A DNA stretch of 63,260 nucleotides, filler included, from Atractiella rhizophila (lineage: Eukaryota): assembly GCA_021432655.1 (NCBI GenBank). It is 5 parts of 5 records of this genome, joined end to end, with 100 filler letters (N's around TTAATTAATTAA, not from the genome) between each part and the next. Parts side by side here need not be neighbours in the genome. Positions count along the whole stretch, not along the records: positions 50,352 to 59,790 come from MU271841.1; 4 more parts are not named here. One strand, given 5' to 3'. The translations under genes and the position numbers were made by a program. The notes beneath the pieces were generated by a model that was not told the origin of the DNA, did no database searches, and saw nothing but the letters and a program-made list of their open reading frames with translations. This document shows positions 25,158-62,196 of the stretch, piece by piece. How positions within the stretch are numbered: position 1 is the first letter of the stretch; the number at the start of each line of letters is the position of its first letter.

Positions 25158-25257
25158 NNNNNNNNNNNNNNNNNNNNNNNNNNNNNNNNNNNNNNNNNNN
25201 NTTAATTAATTAANNNNNNNNNNNNNNNNNNNNNNNNNNNNNNNNNNNNNNNNNNNN
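25158..25257. other. Artificial 100-nt contig linker
   Basis: N44-TTAATTAATTAA-N44 (stop codons in all six frames). The same linker occurs four times. Confidence 0.97.
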
Positions 25258-31606: not shown

Positions 31607-31931
31607 GGTAAATAGGAAAAATAATGTTAATAAATAATTTTAATTTTAATTTTAATTTTAATTTTAATTTTAATTTTAGTTTTAATTTTAATCTTAATAG
31701 TATAAAGAATATAAATAAAAATATTTATTTATAATAAGAGTAATATAAATAAAAATATTTATTTATAATAAGAGTAATATAAATATAAATATAAATATAA
31801 ATATAAATATAAATATTATTTTTTTAATTATTATTTAAAGGAAAATCTTATAAGAAATTTAATTTTCTAAAGAAAATTTTTATATTATTAAATAATTATA
31901 TATTTTATCAAGAGGAATTAATTTAACCAAA
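31607..31931. repeat. Extremely AT-rich low-complexity tract
   Basis: (TTTTAA)n, (TATAAA)n and a short tandem duplication. Almost no G/C. Confidence 0.9.
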
Positions 31932-48800: not shown

Positions 48801-50189
48801 TGATGAAATTACAAGTTCATAGTATTATGATAAAGAATCTAGTGCTTTTATACCTTTACAGTAGGTGGCAAACATTGGTAAGCATGGAAGTCCAGAAGGT
48901 TCACAGCCACAGAACAGGTGGCAATGAATGACACTCAACGTGCCAAAATCCTGACAAACTCCACCTTGAGCAAATGAAATGCCACAAAAGAAATAAAAGA
49001 AACACATCTAAGAAAAGGAAGAAACACACTAAACTGGATCCTGAGAATGAAGCTCCCCCTCACTCTCCCTTATTCCAGTAATTCTCCAATCTCACTAATC
49101 TCCACAACCGTTGAAGGATCAGGCCACCTTCCAAGCTGCACGTCTGTGGTTGATTCCCGGCCGCCACACGCACAACTTCAATGGGTCCTTATTTTCTCAA
49201 AAGGCCGCAGAAATGGTGAATGAGGACATTGCCTCCCTTGGCGCAGCCTTCTCTGGACAATCGCGCGCTAAATGTCCAGAGTTTCCACAGACGTAGCAAT
49301 GAATTAATCGTGAAGAATTTGAGTTATCGCGGGGTTTGAACCTTCTGCTTGTTGTGATCAACACTTCCCCAGTTTCCTCCTTTACTCCTCTTCTCCCCTC
49401 CTAATTCCTGAGAGCTCCAATGACGTCTTGAATGGTCAACTCTTCTTTAGTTGCCATCAAAGTCCCGGCTAAGCCCCCCCAATCCTCCGTGAGGCTGAAA
49501 ATGAGAACGTCTGTTATATCGGTATCTTCTAGTTTAAGCCCGATCGATTTGAGATTAGAAGCACTGGAGGAAACTTCTTGAATGTAAGCTTCAACCGGTT
49601 TTGTGGAATCGTGCTTGGCGTTGTAGAACCGACGTTTCAGCATGATTCTGTTTGCTCAGCTGTTCTTCTCATATTTCTCCTTCAAAGCCTTCCATGCGGC
49701 CGCTCCAGCTGTGCAATCTCGGATGTAATTGTATTGGGATGGATCGACACTCAATCCGATGATGGTGAGTCCCAATTCATTACTTTCTTTCCAAGTCCTC
49801 AGTTTCTTATCCTCTGGCAAAGGCTCCTCCACCACTCCACTCACTTCATCCCAGCAACTCCCTCTCTTCAGGACCAAAGTAACAGCAAATTTCCAGTCAT
49901 TGTAGTTGCTCTCTGTAAGCTTGGGGACCGACTGAAATAGTGTGTTGAGATTTGAGGTGGACATTGTAAAGTGGGCTTGGCTGCAGGTGTGGGTGCTTAA
50001 AGATAGAACACTGCTCTTACTACCAATTGATGAAATTACAAGTTCATAGTATTACGATAAAAAATCTAGTGCTTTTATACCTTTACAGTAGGTGGCAAAC
50101 ATTGGTAAGCATGGAAGTCCAGAAGGTTCAAGAAAACAGCCACAGAACAGGTGGCAACAAATGACGCTCAACGCGCCAAAACCCTGACA
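48801..50189 (-). mobile_element. Gag-only LTR retroelement (1389 bp), LTR-C at 48801-48956 and 50028-50189, 5-bp TSD TGTTG
   Basis: Paired TG...CA direct repeats, TGTTG at 48796-48800 and 50190-50194, PBS-like site at 50013-50025, purine-rich GGTGGAG before the 3' LTR, no pol sequence. Confidence 0.9.
49207..49964 (-). pseudogene. Copia-type Gag (UBN2-like region plus CCHC knuckle) with two in-frame stops
   Basis: KLTESNYNDWK, AAWKALKEKYE, CYVCGNSGHLARDC in one frame across a TGA (49656-49658) and a TAG (49401-49403). Confidence 0.88.
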
Positions 50190-50251: not shown

Positions 50252-50351
50252 NNNNNNNNNNNNNNNNNNNNNNNNNNNNNNNNNNNNNNNNNNNNTTAAT
50301 TAATTAANNNNNNNNNNNNNNNNNNNNNNNNNNNNNNNNNNNNNNNNNNNN
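50252..50351. other. Artificial 100-nt contig linker
   Basis: N44-TTAATTAATTAA-N44. Confidence 0.97.
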
Positions 50352-53300
50352 GACAAATCAGGCCGAGTCCAGTTCTCGCACACCCAGTCTACAATTTCGC
50401 GGATCTGCACCCACAAATCGTAGCTGACCGGCTCGCTAAATTTCTGTTGCAGATAAACTACCGAAGCGGTGAGGAATATTCAGGTGCAATAGATATGGAC
50501 TCACTGGCATCCATGAGTTCTCCATATATGTCTAGTTGCAAGTGGTCCTGTCATGTAGAGTTATTTCCTCATCACCTTGGTGAGCATGAACATACACAGG
50601 CACCATTGCCAATGCGGACCTGCGTGAAGGCATCAGCATGGCTAGGCATGGTGCGAACGAGTATATGCTCACTGGACGCTGACCACGATAACCCTCGAGG
50701 TGGTTCAACTCGAACTCTTGTAACTCTTTGGAACCATGAATTGTGAACATGATCTGCAAGGGGTTGTCGCTTCCTCTGTCTCGCTCTTGGATACGGTCAT
50801 GCATGAAGTCTTCGAAAATGGTCAGTGTTTTCGTTTACAGATTGGTTTCCAGCTTACGCATATATTGGCGGGCTTCTTCAGTGAACCCAAGCCTATTTCT
50901 CTGTGTCAGTCGCGAGCGATGGATTGGCAGCAAGGAGCCGCACCTGATGAAAGCGTAGATGGTAAAGGACGCATCTCGAACCCAACAATACCTGTAATCC
51001 CAAGTTCGACCATTTCCCTCCAGATCCTGGGAGATAACGATTCAGTAGAAAAAGATTGGTTAAAAAGAACTGTACCTCCGGTAGGGAAAATGTCGGGGCT
51101 GCGACGATACTTCCCTTGGGTTCAAAGGTGAGGAGCTGTTGATCTAGTGTGAGGAACTCTGCCGTTGAGCGTAAAATGAGTGCAGACTTTGAGAGTAATC
51201 CTAATTTGGCAGGTTAGTATAAGAGAAAAATGGAGAGCAAGGTAGGCTTACGCNNNNNNNNNNNNNNNNNNNNNNNNNCGGACGTAGAAGTCCAAGCTAC
51301 AGGCGAGGTGGACGACCTGGGACGCCTCAAAGGCTACCAAGTCGTAAACCCTGGAGACGAAGAAGAAGAAGACCCTCTAGCTTCGGGGTCGGTAGTAGCA
51401 GAGGAGGTCGAAGTTGTACTTCAAGTCGAAGACCATAACCCCATCCAAGACTACGGCCTTCGCCGCCGAGGAGGCCAACTCCGTGGTAAGACGGAAGCCC
51501 CTCACTCCTCACTGCGGTGATCTGAGATATGGGGTCCCTAGCAGAAGAAGGTACCTGTTCAGCCCTGGAAGAAGGAGAGATACGGGCAAGACCGGAAAGT
51601 GTACGCGACCGAGAGGTAAGACGTCATAACTGAGTCTGAGACCCCCTTTCGAGCTCTAAAGACGAAGATGAAGGTAACCAAGGGTCAGGTAGCTTTCGTG
51701 GTTGACCGCCGTAAGTAGTGTGTGAAGAGACAAGTGAAAGGAGCGGGTTACACAAGGGTTGTAACCTAAAGGTGAGAAACTATTCGGCTAACAGCAGCAG
51801 AACAAGCTCGTTCATTGGCTAAACCTGCTCTACCAGAAGTTTTCGGTGTCGCGAAACTTCCATCCGAAGTTTAAGTCGCTTACGAAGAAATCTCTTTCTT
51901 ACTCCGTCCCTACCCTCCTCTTCTAATCTATCCTAACTTCTAACTTACCTCCCTTGACATTCAAATCGCTTGTCCCAAGCTCACCCTAGTCTTTTCCACA
52001 GGCCTTTCTCCATGCGGCTGTCTTTTCATCGGTGAAGGCAATTCCAACGCTTCCCAAGCTCTCGACTTCGAAGGCGCCACTAAAACTACTGCACACAACT
52101 GCCGCACCCCCTACTATTCCACATCTCATCACTGCTTCTTCTGCTACCCCTGAGCTCTTCCCCGTCTTTTTCACTTGCATCCTAGCTAGGCCTGTTCAGG
52201 AACTATGCGTAAAGCTCTCGGCGACCCTTTTCGTGTCTTTTGCGGCAGTCATGCGACACCTCGCTTCGGAAGCTTAGACTACGGAAGCTCTGACTCTCGT
52301 CGGTACCTTTGTAGTCGGAAACGAGCTGGGGAGTTGTTTACTTCAGCATGGAACTTGGAGACAAAGTTAGAACTTAAGAAAAACAAGACAAGGAGGAAGC
52401 TTTCTCTTCCGAACTAAGGTTGTCGACTTCTCGCACGAGAGGTATTCATGGACGTCCAGAAAGGTGGAAGAGAGATTGCTAGAGGTCTGGACACGCGCAA
52501 CTTAAAGTTCACCAAATCCCAGACTTTTATAAAAGAACTCGAGAAGGTAGAACTGCCTACGTAGCAGGTCGGCAGGCACGAGCCTATACTCCAGTACTCG
52601 ATCTGAGTTTCAAAACCTCTGCAACTCGTTGCGGCTGTCTTCAACGAGAAACTTATTCAACATCAGTATTCAGCGAGACCTTCAGCACACCTATCAATAC
52701 TCGAGAAACTCGAACCTTTATACGGGTCAGATACGTGTTCGGAACTCCATCACTGCATCCACCTTCTTTATCTCCTGGGTGGACGAGTAGCACATTGACT
52801 AACAAGTCGACAGCAACGACCAGTAAGTTTGCCAAATCCAGCAGAGAGTCTCATTTTCGACTTAAACAAACTCTCCATTTCCGCCGGTTTAACGACCACT
52901 AAACAAATACCTCAAGTACGACGAGTTGCACAGTAAAGACGTTAAGAGCGTAACCGCAGATCGCCATGGAAGTGTCTTCTCTAAAGGAACAGGTCGCGGA
53001 GGTTTAATAAGGACATGAAGAAGGGTAGCAGCAAGGGCAACTCGAGGTTGACCTTTAGGTAGTGAATTGTTGAAATGTTCCCAAGACGTTCTCTCTTAAG
53101 TGCACTGACAGTGCCGTAGTGGCTGAGGGCGCCTTAACAATCCGCACAAACAACCGCGACACCCCTCGTTTCGTTGGTCGTATCGAAGTCGAAGCCAGAA
53201 GCGAAGTCAGTGAATTTTCCCAGAATCCCGTTGCACGTAAGTAGCTAGCGGGGTAAGTCGGTGGTAAGTCGCATATTTAAGTTCGATACCGGAGGAGTGG

Positions 53301-54613
53301 ACAGCGAAGTGCGAGGTTCTACAGTCGGTAGTGGTTTCCTCAACCTAGAGTCGTAGGCAAGTAGTCCTTAAGTTGGTGTCCTCTAGTACTACCTATGCAG
53401 CATACAGAAGACGTAACGTTTCACGACTTCACGACTTTACGACTTGAGGCGCAGCTGTCGGCTAGCTCTCAATACCTGACTAGCCACGCAGCTAGGTGGA
53501 GCTTAAGCTCGTCCTATATTTCTGTACTAGATCCCTTGTACGTATGACGGCGAGACCATAGCGAGCTACGCTCGTAGCTGTCGAAGACAACCGGTTTAAA
53601 GCTGAGTGGCTCCAAGCAAGCAGGAAAGGGATGGTCGCTAAGATTGTGACCGAGCTTGACGGATCACACAAGCGCTCTTAGCACCTGTTTTTGTTTCCAC
53701 CTGTGAAAGTCTAAGTGGGGTGAACCCTATTCAAGTGTCGAGCGCGAAGGATGAACGGGTTGTGACGTCACAACGTTTCATTCAAGTACGTGCTTCTCCC
53801 TCAACATTGGTAACACTCGGACAAGGAGAAAAGACGTGAGTTTATTTGATTACTTAGGTTTCTGGCTGAAGGAGGAGCGGATCCGGCAGTCATGTCTTTT
53901 TTGGCGAGATAGGGACGAACCAAGCTGCGCAACTTCAAGCACGAGGGGAGCACAGGTTTTACGAAAGACTAAGTCTGGATGTCCGACAAGCACCGTCCCA
54001 AGGCAACTTCGATCTTACAATGGGACGTAAGTTGATGCGCGCTCTACTCGTGTGGTGCTTGCACCGGCGTCTAGGGAGTCGGAATCTGTGTTGGGTCCCG
54101 GTGAGATTTCGGTGCAAGCGCAGGTTTCTAGAGTGCTACCTCGATGCCATGTAGAGCTCGGGACCTCTGTGCAGCTTCCGAGGCCGCCATAGAAAGCTCT
54201 TCCTGAGGCGGAGACAGCGGCACGATCCTGACTTTCCACGACCACAATGGCGGTTCAAACTCAACCTCCTCTGTGTTTGTCAGTGCAAGTAAAAAACCCT
54301 TGGGCTTTTCCTCTTCCCAGGGTCTTTGCTTCGGGAACAATCCGTTGAGGGTTAAACTTGTTTCGTTTTCTTCTAGGTCCTCTCTGCTGATGAGAAGGAC
54401 TGTTTTAACTACTTTTCACGCCTCAGCGTAAACAACAATACAGTACGACTGAAACACGGTTCCAAGACAAAAGCTGGACATATTACTATGGTTCGATCCA
54501 TTCTACCGCCAAATGAGCTGAGTTGGGGTGTAATTACTAAGCAGGTCATGACCTTTCCAACCCACTCGTTCAGGAGCATGTGGCCCGCGACCTCTCTTAA
54601 ACACTACGCAAGT
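50352..54613 (-). CDS. Glycoside hydrolase family 15 (glucoamylase/trehalase-like). Normal part 50352-51253; 5' exons hidden in the mirrored block (complement of 53287-54613 read left to right). 3' end cut by the gap
   Basis: [46 protein letters not shown] in the normal part. The mirrored part gives MASSPVASRSK...[34 protein letters not shown]. Confidence 0.88.
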
Positions 54614-54671
54614 CGCATTCGGATGGAACGAGAGGTAAAAAGAGAATATGATTGGACGGTTTAATCCTAAT
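51279..54671. other. Block written reversed without complementation (assembly artefact), preceded by a 25-N gap at 51254-51278
   Basis: 54614-54671 is the exact mirror image of 51196-51253. Right-to-left reading gives genes that join both flanks in frame. Confidence 0.96.
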
Positions 54672-56047
54672 TGGGGATTTGACGACGACACAGGGGACGC
54701 CTCTTCCTCTTCGTCTTCAGAACCTGAGGTGCCAGCCGAAGACCCAAACCTTGTCACCACTACCCGAGCCGCCTATCCACGTCAACCCAGGACCTCGACG
54801 TCTTCCCGTCCTCGCAGCTTTGTAGGAGTGTTAGGTACCCCGTCACCTTCACCTACCACCACGTCCTTCGGCCCATCGATACATGCGAGGCGCAAAGCAA
54901 GGGCGAGCGATAGATACGTCATCTCTGCAAAGAGTCGGAAGGTGTCAGAACTGGCGAATCGTATTCTCGATGAGGTGGAGGCAATCGAAGAATCCAGGTA
55001 CATTTAGATTTCTTTCACGGGAGATCACTACTGAAGGTAAAAGCAGCTTCACTCCTCGAGCACGGGCCAGACTTGTTCGATCATTCCTTGACGTTCTTGA
55101 CCTCTACAGGGCCACCATGCCCGTGCACCATATGAAGAAACTAGAAATCCCAGCTCTTGGAATGCAATTTTCAAACGACTGCCAATGGATCTCCCACGAT
55201 ATTGAACGACGCTTGAAGAAAGACAAGAATGGTCGACTGGAGAACGAAGAAGGCGTCAGCCTTGCCCTGGACCAATTGCGGAAGCTAGGGGAGCGGTGGA
55301 GGTCGAAACAAGAGGTTGGTTGTTTCAAGTTTGGTGAGGCGTATGGGAATGACGAAACGGCAGGAGCTGCAACGTTCGGTTATTTTGGATTGTCTCAGTG
55401 GAACGGATCATTTCAAAGATGTGGGGGATGACCTTCGTTATGCGAACTGTCAAAGGAGCATCAAGCAGATCATCATGAGTCTGTCGCAGCTCTCACAGGC
55501 ATGGCAGGTGTGTTTGTCCCTTCTTTGTATGACGGGAGTCTCAATGCTCTTTAGAATGTCGTCGCCCGGTCATACCTCTTGAAAGCATTGGGCAACATAG
55601 TCAACGAAGTTCTCACTGTCATCCTGAAAGACATCGAAGACATGGTGGACATATCTGCAGATGAAAGCGACCGACTGAACCTTCTATGCAAAAGTCTTCA
55701 CGAGCTAGAAAACCTTTTCTCCGATGGAACAAGAGTAATTTCATCTTCTTCTAACACAGTGATACGTACCGCTCACAGGTGATGCAGTCGGAGGTAGGAA
55801 TCCATGTACCCATCTGGTTCAAATTCGTGTTCCTCAGCGAGATCCTCTCAGCTTCCATGGTGCGTTTTCCTTTCTCTCGTAGTGGACCGAAGTTGAGCGC
55901 TGGTGTAAGGCGGACCTTATGTACCTTTGGAACGAGGGTCACCTTCACGAGTTCTCTGCTCAGGAGATAGTGAATCTCATTACGGCTCTATTCAGCGATT
56001 CGAGCGCTCGTCAAAAGAACATCAATGCGATTTTGGGGCATCATTGA
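51279..56047 (+). CDS. ZW10/Dsl1-like tethering/kinetochore protein. 5' half lies in the mirrored block (read ~53060 down to 51279), 3' half is 54672-56047
   Basis: Mirrored ...GWGFDLPEEEE...EPEDAG joins WGFDDDTG in frame. Also LDLYRATMP, MQFSNDC, WFKFVFLSEILSASM, EIVNLITALFSDS. Confidence 0.8.
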
Positions 56048-56114
56048 GCAAAGGAAGGAAGGAGCGAATCAAAAACATGGGTGGAAATTATGGTTTATCT
56101 TGCACAAGGATAAT

Positions 56115-57105
56115 CTAAATAGCTTTGCTCTTGACAAGGGCTGCATCACAACCAATGAGCGACGAGTACGACGATAGAAAGCGTTGAGAACGTACCCTCG
56201 ACCTCGGCAACGGCAGAGACCAAAATATCCCTCTGCAGTTTCTTGTCCTTCAATTGCTCAGCAACGGTGGCCTGAACGGTCTTGACAAGCTCCTTCTGTT
56301 GTGCCTCTCGCTGTTGACCCTCGTACCTGACCCACGAGTCCAACACTGACTTGATCTCGGCAGCGACCGCCGACTTTTGACGGAGGACGTAAGCTTCGTG
56401 CTCAAGCTTCGCGGTTTCCTGTACACCAGTTGAATCAGCGAAATGGAGGCAAAGTGTAAGGAGGAGAGAGCGAACCTCAGAGAGAGCGAAGAGGGCCTTG
56501 GTCACTTCCTCAACATCCTGGAGCTCCTTTACCGAGTCAATCCTCTCCCTAACGGCGGAGGTGTGTTCAGCCCTTGAGCTATTGAGGATGTCCTTGATTT
56601 TCTACACTCCCACATCACTTCTAGACCCATTCCACTGCCGTTGAGCAGAAAACGCACGTTGATATTGGCATCCGCCCACTCCCTGTAAGGAGTCCTAACC
56701 AAAGTGGAGAGATAGGCAATGAAAGCAACAAAGGATCCGAGAATGACAAATTCGCTGTTTAAGACGATGAGCTCTTGAGAAAGGGCAGCGGCGGTGACAC
56801 CGGTTCCAAGGGTGATCCATCCGGTCTTAGTGACGATTGAATTTCCAGGCAGGGAGTCAATAATCGACGCCGCCTTCACTTTGGGGTCTGGAACTGTTGA
56901 CTCCCGTCACTAAGGAGGGCCGAATGGGTAAAAGGAGGAAGTACCTGTGGATTGGCGCCTGGCACTGTTTTGGGGCTTGTGAGCGAGCAACGTGGCTTTG
57001 GGACGTAAAAACTCACAGAATGAGGGGCACGGCAGGCGAGACCCTGTTCAGAGTCGTAGGCCGCACGGCGGTGAGGTTACGCCCGGCTAGTCGAAGGGCA
57101 CTCAT
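56115..57105 (-). CDS. ATP4: Mitochondrial ATP synthase subunit b (subunit 4)
   Basis: KAASIIDSLPGNS, ETAKLEHEAY, KSVLDSWVRYEGQQRE; presequence-like N-terminus; ends ALVKSKAI*. Confidence 0.95.
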
Positions 57106-57506
57106 GTTTTTGGTGGTAGTCGAAGTTTGCTCAATACCTTGATGCGCGTTGATGAGACATTACACTTACAACACCCCATTGTTTGTGGAGTGTAAAAATT
57201 ATGGGATAGGACGTCGTCCATTCAGGCTTCCAAAAATCAACTAGTAAAACCAAAGTCGAATGGTGTTCGTAAATCAGGGCTCCTATTAACAAGAACGGCT
57301 GAACAAGTAATGCTGCCCATGACTGGGCTCCTGAGAGGGACAGTCTACCAGAAGACATATCTCTGTCCAAGTGAGCCTCACTTGGGAACTAAACTTCGCA
57401 AGGACGAATAGCAGTCCTATAGCAGTCCAGTTGTCATTGACCGAACTGCCGAGAAAGGGTTCCGAGTGGTGGAGGATGGCATCTCGCGATGATGTCCTGA
57501 TTCCTT

Positions 57507-58815
57507 CTAATCAACGTCCATTTCGTCATCCAAGAGTATCTCCTCCATCCTCTTCCTATGACTCTCCTCCTCTTTCTCCGCCGCATCGATCTTCCTATTC
57601 TTCTCAGCCGTTTTCCTCCTTGTCTTCTCAATCTCCACCAGGAGCCTCAACTCCTCCAACTTCCTTCTCTTGCGCTCCTTCTCTTGCGATAGCTCCTCAG
57701 ACGAAGACCTCAGTGCGGCTGCCTCAGATTTCAAGTTTTTAATAACATTTTCAGCCTCTTCCAATTGGGACTTCATGGCCGTTCGGTATTCAAGAATCTG
57801 ACGTCCAACGCCCAGAACCATCTCCTGCGTGACTACGTTTGGTGCGGCTTGTGATGGTGGGATAGACTTGGTCGACTTGTCCGCCAAAAGGGCAGATTTC
57901 CGCTTCCTCTTTTTCTTCGAGCTCGCATTGTCCACTCTGGGTAGGAGTAGCTGGGAATCGTCGAATGCCACACCTCCTTCTTCGGTGGAGACACTCTGTG
58001 AACGTTCTTCGCGGGATGTAACTTGAACGGCCTGATTGAGAGAGGAGGAGGAGCGTGGTAGTGGAGAACTGTGCTGGATCTTCACTTTAGAAGGGCTCGC
58101 AGGGAGGCGAGAAGGAGCAGGAGATGAGTCTGATGTGGGCCACATGTTGAAAGGCGAAATTGGAGTTGTGGACGCGCTGTTCCGTCTGTCAGTGTGGATA
58201 CTATCATGTATGCATTGAGTAGAACAAGGACCTGTCGTAATTGATGGTGAAGCCAACGTCTTCATGCCAGCTGTTGAGGTGCTTCCTCGCTTCTGCAAGC
58301 ATATGAGGGTCCACAATCTCCTTGTCGATTTCGAGCCAAAGACCAGATTCTGTGCTTTTCCCCCTCGTGGATCGCTCTGACCCTGGAGGACGCCACTGCA
58401 AGACGACGAACAATGACTGACCAGCCTGGAATCGCGCATTTGACGGAAACTGGATTACAATCAGCTTTGTGGAACTTTGAAAATTAAACATTTACGACTA
58501 CCGAAACGAGGTCAGACGCGTCAATCCTGGACGGTTTGATGCCCTCCGCTTGGGGATTGAAGGTGAAGGCATTGTTGGCAAGGTGGAGTTCAGCCTTGAC
58601 AAGGTGGACACTTGCATTGTCTGCATCTGACTGTGCGAATTTACTAATTGGTAGAAGGAGAGGCACGACATCCAACGCTGACGAGGTCTTTCGGAGGGCT
58701 GACATGGAAGCCTGAGTATGGACGTGTTGTGTTGATATGAGTATGATGAGGGTTGGTGCTGCTTGATGAAAACGTTGAATGCAAATAAATGACTAGCAAT
58801 GACTGTCTGAGTCAT
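57507..58815 (-). CDS. Hypothetical protein with Ser-rich middle, basic NLS-like KKKRKRK and C-terminal coiled coil; start uncertain
   Basis: 310-aa ORF plus upstream exon-like ORFs. Confidence 0.6.
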
Positions 58816-59578
58816 TGCAGTTTAGCTGCCACTGAGAAACGTTGTCAGTTCTGATGGCGACCGTCCGTTCTCTCTCTATTGAAATCTTGCTCAGATATCG
58901 AAATCATGGACGCTCATTGGGTCGACGAACAACGGCCGGATCATACGCGCTCGAGCTTTGACCCTCAGGATCTCTGGATATGCATTCTCTCCAAGACCCA
59001 CATTCAACCTTGCTCTCTAGTCTGCGACCGATAGAGCAAGCTTTCCCTGCCACTCGTTGATCTTACACCAGCACTTAGGCTTTCTGAAACAAACATGGAT
59101 CTCTTTTATACGCAATATTTTCTAATCGTCAAGAAGGCAAAAGAATATTAAACCTGTGCGCCTTGGGCCTTTGATGACGCTTAAGCTCGCTCGCTACCAG
59201 TTTCTTAGGAGGGCTTGTCGACTCTTTCCCACAATGGAGCTCGAGCCGTTCCATTGAGCCAAAGGGAATGGTTGACCTATGAACGTTTAATAGCGCGACT
59301 TGAAGCGGACGATACTAAGATCGATTTGAAGGGCTTGTTGTTCTTCGATGAAGAAACTGTATGCTGAATCAAATCAATGACTTTTGGCGGACATCGACGA
59401 AGATCTGGTTCGCTCCCGATATTCGTCAGTCACTCTGTTAACCTCAATCCTCCCGATATCTTCCAGTCGCGCGATCGGTTGAGACTTTGTGGCTTCACAG
59501 GGTCACGTGTCTTCTGCGAGATTGAGAGCGATTCATTCCATAATGAAATACAAAAGCATTTATACAATGAGGTATCGT

Positions 59579-59768
59579 TTAAAACTGCTCCAGTCGCAGA
59601 TTAGTACCCCGATGAAGTAAAAGTGGCAGCTCACCTGTCTCTGAAATCCAGGATAGCCGGTCTGTTGTGGCATCATCCCATTCTGGCCGAAAGCGCCCAT
59701 TTGAGGTTGAAATCCTGTAGGCTGAGGCTGGAATTGCTGCGGTGCACCAAATCCTGGTTGTACGAATC
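59579..59768 (-). CDS. 3' end of a Gln/Pro/Gly-rich protein with QxTG repeats (Sla1/Pan1/epsin-like endocytic adaptor); 5' part missing
   Basis: FVQPGFGAPQQFQPQPTGFQPQMG...PQQTGYPGFQRQ, then a GT-AG intron, then TTT TAA. Confidence 0.5.
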
Positions 59769-59790
59769 CTGGATCAAAGAACGATTAGAC

Positions 59791-59890
59791 NNNNNNNNNN
59801 NNNNNNNNNNNNNNNNNNNNNNNNNNNNNNNNNNTTAATTAATTAANNNNNNNNNNNNNNNNNNNNNNNNNNNNNNNNNNNNNNNNNNNN
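59791..59890. other. Artificial 100-nt contig linker
   Basis: N44-TTAATTAATTAA-N44. Confidence 0.97.
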
Positions 59891-62096: not shown

Positions 62097-62196
62097 NNNN
62101 NNNNNNNNNNNNNNNNNNNNNNNNNNNNNNNNNNNNNNNNTTAATTAATTAANNNNNNNNNNNNNNNNNNNNNNNNNNNNNNNNNNNNNNNNNNNN
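62097..62196. other. Artificial 100-nt contig linker
   Basis: N44-TTAATTAATTAA-N44. Confidence 0.97.

Follow-up and report, generated by a model that had tools for sequence, protein, structure and literature searches.

A 3.4-kb block of Atractiella rhizophila DNA written in reverse letter order beside a scaffold gap

In a 63,260-nucleotide (nt) stretch of the Atractiella rhizophila assembly GCA_021432655.1, hereafter the window, the part at 50352-59790 (from MU271841.1) contains a block of 3393 nt at 51279-54671 that adjoins a 25-N gap and is native DNA in reverse letter order, not complemented. The reversal of the whole block is backed by four independent lines of evidence: (i) open frames, (ii) composition, (iii) homology, and (iv) public sequencing data. 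We conclude that the block is almost certainly an artefact of assembly or gap closing and not a biological feature. A preliminary description, made by reading the sequence, had already taken the block for native DNA that is reversed but not reverse-complemented, and the mirror overlap, the loose ends of public contigs, a Markov test and tblastn all bear this out; its end coordinate stands, and its start at 51254 has to be moved to 51279 because 51254 includes the gap. The elements on which the argument depends are the following, with the evidence for each in brackets.

51279-54671, no strand: mirror-written block, 3393 nt (mirror match, frames, contigs, composition, tblastn).
51254-51278, no strand: 25-N gap, a leftover placeholder at which no sequence is truly missing (the un-reversed block closes it).
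51196-51253, no strand: true copy of the 58-nt overlap, directly preceding the gap (58/58 against the reversal of 54614-54671).
54614-54671, no strand: 51196-51253 in mirror writing, forming the distal end of the proposed extension and redundant with the left flank (mirror match, blastn).
50352-51253, minus strand: left contig piece, correctly written, with middle exons of a gene of the GH15 (trehalase-like glucoamylase) family (Pfam, tblastn, spliced contigs).

The letters of 51196-51253 agree at 58/58 positions with 54614-54671 read backwards without complementing, exactly as the preliminary description had stated. The first of these copies directly precedes the only 25-N run in the whole window, and the mirror relation is exactly 58 long, running from the gap to the point where the pair 51195/54672 breaks it. 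A mirror scan with 16-mers across the whole window yielded 357 hits, of which 86 fall on the diagonal of this pair, the largest one. When the reversed block was compared with the window by blastn, the sole match was the 58-nt overlap (E 2.9e-24), which excludes chance as the source of the mirror overlap. Once un-reversed, the block shares 58 nt with the left flank and directly adjoins the right flank, which closes the gap: the true neighbour of 54672 is base 51279, and base 54671 is the equivalent of 51196. The corrected locus used below consists of the left flank to 51253, the reversal of 54613 to 51279, and the right flank from 54672. As a separate observation, mirror diagonals of appreciable size arise elsewhere in the window only from an AT-rich simple repeat at 31635-31801 (TTTTAA and ATATAA units), which is self-mirroring, of ordinary low complexity and the source of the 14 next-largest diagonals.

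Reversal restores homology to a GH15 protein. In the left flank, Pfam Glyco_hydro_15 (PF00723) matches 50835-51041(-) with 26.8 bits at a cut-off of 22, and a homologue search with a left-flank GH15 exon returned 10 full-length GH15 proteins, the closest being a 651-amino acid (aa) protein of A. rhizophila, referred to as P0005. Searched against the block as written by tblastn on both strands, these 10 proteins gave nothing better than E 0.16, in agreement with the earlier assertion that six-frame tools are blind to the block. Against the reversed block, residues 1-267 of P0005 match with E 7e-108, single exons being 88-93% identical, and 9 of the 10 queries match at E<=1e-5. In the corrected locus, residues 1-431 of P0005 match in linear order on a single strand through the left junction; in the locus as written, tblastn matches only residues 250-432, in the left flank, running from 51201 to 50351. 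The plain complement read left to right from 53539 is identical to P0005 residues 1-24 at 24/24 positions.

The open frames and the composition of the block are likewise those of a reversed sequence. The longest stop-to-stop frame in 51279-54671 is 139 aa as written, compared with 253, 204, 167, 164 and 161 aa after reversal, whereas five control segments of the same length display the opposite pattern (198-588 aa as written, at most 137 aa reversed). For an alignment-free measure, we used strand-symmetrised Markov chains of order 1-4, trained on the rest of the window, and scored a string by the log-likelihood of its written form minus that of its reversal. Negative scores were obtained for 5/5 sub-windows of 1 kb inside the block and for none of 116 outside it; with sub-windows of 400 nt, the corresponding counts were 14/15 and 10/287. 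The TA/AT ratio is 1.57 in the block versus 0.64 elsewhere, and the remaining dinucleotide pairs that are sensitive to reversal are flipped as well. The composition of the block thus mirrors that of the surrounding sequence.

Inversions and orientation errors near gaps are common, and a 3.4-kb segment that was inverted in the genome or misassembled as its reverse complement would resemble the block in being a misoriented segment beside a scaffold gap with genes broken at both ends. Inverted DNA is readable on the other strand, however, whereas the block is readable on neither: tblastn, which reads both strands, found no match to the written block better than the E value given above with any of the 10 queries. 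Moreover, blastn of the block against the window identified no reverse-complement partner, the letters shared with the left flank are reversed and not reverse-complemented, and dinucleotides are swapped in the block, including ratios that are invariant to reverse-complementing such as TA/AT. An ordinary inversion, whether real or arising during assembly, is therefore refuted.

Public sequencing data agree with the reversed block at both junctions. These data are Logan contigs, not raw reads, from four runs that contain the flanks; X1 and X2 are DNA runs, and the X3 and X4 contigs lack GT-AG/CT-AC introns and behave as transcripts. At the left junction, contigs of X1 and X2 reach 51253 and extend 255 letters beyond it, of which the 30 shown equal positions 59-88 of the reversed block (30/30). 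The spliced contigs of X3 and X4 skip six CT..AC introns in 50352-51253 and proceed from 51135 via a 13-nt mini-exon at 51188-51200 to bases 51252-51253 and from there into reversed-block letters (30/30 for X3; one letter different for X4, compared by eye). Because these spliced contigs pass into reversed-block letters, the GH15 mRNA crosses the left junction in un-reversed order. At the right junction, contigs of X1, X2 and X3 arrive with 120-204 loose letters, the X3 contig extending 204 letters upstream, and the 30 letters shown agree with the reversed block's terminus at 28/30 positions. The preliminary description had named reads spanning 54671/54672 as written as the observation that would speak against a reversal; none was found in these data, which are contigs, and contigs from both flanks run into reversed-block letters instead. 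Cover of the block as written is at zero depth from 51470 to 54577 in 4/4 runs, an absence that we do not take as evidence.

These contigs also bear on whether the block could be a genuine mirror repeat, i.e. 'mirror DNA' that exists in the genome. Short mirror repeats are known in genomes, and the mirror repeats of H-DNA or triplexes are short, adjacent homopurine/homopyrimidine tracts that share with the block the letter-reversal symmetry of two arms. The arms described here depart from this pattern: each comprises 58 nt of mixed sequence, a distance of 3.4 kb separates them, and they simply form the termini of a single large reversed segment, the intervening 3.4 kb being reversed too. Contigs continue un-reversed in three runs at the right junction and in two DNA and two spliced runs at the left junction and, to our knowledge, no polymerase or recombination reaction copies DNA 3' to 5' without complementing. 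On the strength of the public contigs and of this chemical argument, we exclude a biological mirror repeat, to which we assign a vanishingly small probability.

Several observations weigh against the conclusion that the entire block is a reversed assembly product, or limit how far it reaches. One of the 15 sub-windows of 400 nt inside the block scored weakly positive (+0.3), and the Markov signal is weak (-2.4 to +0.3) over the GH15-coding region 53552-54552, a region that is covered by homology. Only 30 letters of each loose contig end are shown, and for the middle of the block the case depends on homology (mirror positions 62-1133, equal to window 53539-54610) and composition. The loose ends at the right junction are mismatched at 2/30 positions and carry a T in place of C just before 54672 (GGT versus GGC, both Gly); because of these mismatches, the runs cannot be letter-identical to the source of the window. 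A full-text literature search found no account of assembly blocks that are letter-reversed and not complemented, which is no proof that none exists. Finally, the fault may lie in the public record or may have arisen during later handling of the sequence. The window was evidently processed, since artificial linkers connect its five or more pieces, and the block could in principle be a planted or synthetic test sequence or reflect damage after download, e.g. during joining with the TTAATTAATTAA linkers. Planting a reversal would not give rise to a duplicated overlap of 58 nt together with a 25-N gap and an exact abutment on one side only, and the linkers are of another kind (100 nt) and located elsewhere; we therefore regard planting or later damage as very improbable and retain an assembly or gap-closing artefact as the explanation.

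Which step would generate such an artefact? The proximal end of the proposed extension shows neither overlap nor a missing base, and its distal end carries the 58-nt overlap; the exact proximal fit and the distal overlap together argue that the extension started from the right contig. From this geometry we infer the direction of extension and the kind of bug. We suggest that the right contig was extended leftward over a gap of about 3.3 kb until the extension lay 58 nt inside the left contig, and that the extension was either grown outward one base at a time and left unreversed, or assembled on the opposite strand and then complemented where the reverse complement was required; the two variants would yield an identical string. 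As a result, the true neighbour of 54672 would have come to lie at the far left, at 51279, and the distal end would have been placed against 54672. The reversed string would have concealed the 58-nt overlap from the program, such that the gap stayed open and the minimal 25-N placeholder was kept. The gap-filling orientation bug that had been proposed at the outset fits this geometry.

The layout of block and gap is of a known kind. Passages on PBJelly (English et al. 2012, PMC3504050) define a gap as 25 or more N, describe the extension of flanking contigs into gaps, and call a gap 'overfilled' if the extensions lack an identifiable overlap; a default of 25 N is mentioned in a passage of PMC6240028 as well. 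The block resembles such overfilled gaps in that a contig end was extended, the overlap went unrecognised, a gap of minimum size was left, and the sequence placed exceeds the capacity of the gap. Unlike in those gaps, a 58-nt overlap exists here and was missed only through the reversal of letters, and the PBJelly passages describe no orientation fault, nor do they show that PBJelly was used here.

As a sub-variant of an artefact, a manual finishing error would have produced the same string as a software bug if a polymerase chain reaction (PCR)/Sanger or long-read sequence had been pasted after 'reverse' instead of 'reverse-complement', and no result names the agent. Zero overlap and zero loss at the right flank combined with a 58-nt overlap at the left are typical of automatic extension from one end, and the 25-N placeholder is a program convention in the passages of PMC3504050. 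Given these points, we consider a manual error unlikely and favor an automatic step.

The preliminary description had also proposed that the block hides halves of two genes. For the first of these, the GH15 gene, the N-terminus is established by the homology described above, and the hidden part is the following.

53287-54671, no strand: GH15 N-terminal exons (TREH_N and the beginning of the catalytic domain), which can be read only from left to right in the plain complement.

P0005 residues 3-119 constitute TREH_N (PF19291), and the protein scores 255 bits on Glyco_hydro_15. Indirectly, via the alignment of P0005 to the reversed block, TREH_N is predicted to be encoded upstream in the GH15 gene. 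The start of the gene had been placed at an ATG at 53287, followed by GT-AG introns. This ATG lies in the same frame as 53539 with three in-frame stops in between, which rules it out as the beginning of an uninterrupted frame. We retain it as the beginning of a spliced model in which two GT-AG introns at 53401-53459 (59 nt, GTATGT...ACAG) and 53485-53533 (49 nt, GTGCGT...CTAG) link it to the GH15 N-terminal motif, the spliced product reading ...HDGYV / PIESYGLIG / NMHTAALV, exon by exon. Because the TREH_N match of P0005 begins only at profile position 26, the P0005 model is probably without upstream exons, and 53287 is a plausible, though not proven, GH15 start. By the same token, the annotation of P0005 probably lacks the upstream exon pair, including the exon encoding PIESYGLIG.

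The restored gene is the ortholog of P0005, as judged from the collinear residues 1-431 and the identical residues 1-24. The window copy differs in having the apparent extra 5' exon pair and in being cut at about residue 432 by the scaffold end: the scaffold begins at 50352 after a linker, and the gene is incomplete in the window, ortholog residues 433-651 being absent. Two attempts at a complete exon structure gave untrustworthy models. The model with the fewest introns (10 introns, 565 aa, no stops) was only 52.7% identical to P0005 1-431, and a greedy homology-guided model (14 introns, 69.4% identity) retained 4 stops. We rely solely on the two 5' introns and on the introns supported by RNA. 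A search of representatives with the 106-aa frame at 50893-51213(-) gave 4 weak matches (best E 2.7e-7), none of which was used.

The second gene encodes a ZW10/Dsl1-like protein and crosses the right junction. Its parts, and the region that separates it from the GH15 gene, are as follows.

54672-56051, plus strand: right contig, correctly written, with the C-terminal half of the ZW10/Dsl1-like gene (Pfam, P0015, spliced X3 contig).
51279-53061, no strand: putative N-terminal half of the ZW10/Dsl1-like gene, legible only from the right and uncomplemented (right-to-left reading, exon chain, frame continuity).
53062-53286, no strand: putative short divergent intergenic or promoter region, whose boundaries hang on unverified start codons (start positions of the GH15 and ZW10-like genes).

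When the block is read from the right, its last 80 codons form an open frame (...EDAG), and this frame is carried on without a shift by WGFDDD... at 54672, which confirms the DAG-WGF join that had been noted initially. Single open frames of the right flank score below the Pfam gathering thresholds (ZW10_C, 22.6 versus 25.8 bits; ZW10_C2, 24.7 versus 27 bits). P0015, a 143-aa fragment from A. rhizophila that is 97% identical to the right-flank exons, passes them for ZW10_C2 (81.9 versus 27 bits) and Dsl1_C (30.5 versus 30 bits), and a spliced X3 contig covers the exons from 54672 to 56051. Upstream of the junction, a stop-free chain from an ATG at 53061 requires 5 GT-AG introns (6 exons) in the reversed block versus 11 in the block as written; among 40 shuffles, 20 needed 9-16 introns and 20 were without any path. 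Frame continuity and this exon chain, rather than homology, suggest that the block contains the N-terminal half of the gene, and the earlier proposal of a second hidden half holds in this qualified form.

The assignment to the ZW10/Dsl1 family, with functions at the kinetochore and in endoplasmic reticulum-Golgi tethering, follows from the similarity of the right-flank exons to P0015 as bearer of ZW10_C2 and Dsl1_C. The comparison is restricted to P0015, which is only a 143-aa model. A search for longer homologues with 54835-55431 scored 0/1291 candidates, and a homologue search with 55555-55782 returned only P0015 and no full-length ZW10. A metagenome scan with 54672-54992 gave three loci (L001-L003) from 592 pattern matches; none aligns by blastn to the corrected or the written locus, and we rejected them as low-complexity chance hits. 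P0005 and P0015 are both recorded on one contig of 192,818 bp, which is consistent with the GH15 and ZW10-like genes being adjacent in a relative too. With P0015 as the only representative, the ZW10-like gene of A. rhizophila is known from a fragment, and the gene models of both P0005 and P0015 look incomplete.

The arrangement itself has no biological meaning beyond that of an ordinary divergent pair of genes, one for a GH15 trehalase-like hydrolase and one for a ZW10/Dsl1-like tethering protein. As deposited or handled, however, about 3.3 kb of real sequence is hidden from BLAST, read mapping and gene prediction, two genes are without their 5' halves, a closed gap is displayed as open, and 58 nt are duplicated in disguise. 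A block with inverted dinucleotide statistics would be encountered by anyone who mines the assembly for orphan or 'dark' DNA or uses it to train sequence models. It is conceivable, although we are doubtful, that the fault is systematic in the sense that leftward extensions are left un-reversed by some step of extension or gap closing. If this is the case, kilobases of mirror-written DNA would lie beside many 25-N gaps in this assembly and in other public assemblies from that pipeline; such DNA would be invisible to aligners and six-frame searches, would truncate gene models on both sides and could pass as lineage-specific 'novel' sequence. The written-versus-reversed Markov score (0/116 false positives at 1 kb in this window) combined with a mirror-overlap check at each gap would provide a genome-wide finder and, if the same step misfired elsewhere, the automatic remedy would be to reverse the block, trim the overlap and drop the Ns.

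Two further observations were made in the right flank. Many sites in 54886-55533 are represented in X1 and X2 by two contig variants with split depth, e.g. 234.6 of 359.1 at 54886, and the sequence of the window agrees with one or the other variant, site by site, a pattern suggestive of two haplotypes or nuclei, or of a mixed sample. Immediately downstream of the ZW10-like gene, spliced X3 and X4 contigs of much higher depth delineate a minus-strand gene at 56010-56897(-) with CT..AC introns at 56141-56195, 56418-56474 and 56602-56657.

The 9.4-kb scaffold at 50352-59790 is set off from the preceding sequence by a linker.

50252-50351, no strand: 100-nt linker N44-TTAATTAATTAA-N44, marking the start of the scaffold (sequence).

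It is one of four identical 100-nt linkers of this composition, the others lying at 25158-25257, 59791-59890 and 62097-62196. Each of the six frames meets a stop in the TTAATTAATTAA 12-mer, which a passage of PMC4983044 describes as a six-frame stop linker. Given that the window is a concatenation of at least five contigs or scaffolds, neighbours across a linker are not physically linked. The contig that precedes the linker at 50252-50351 ends in the gag of a Copia-type long terminal repeat (LTR) retrotransposon at 49401-50051(-) (Retrotran_gag_2, E 3e-11 and 6e-13), with a CCHC knuckle in the next frame.

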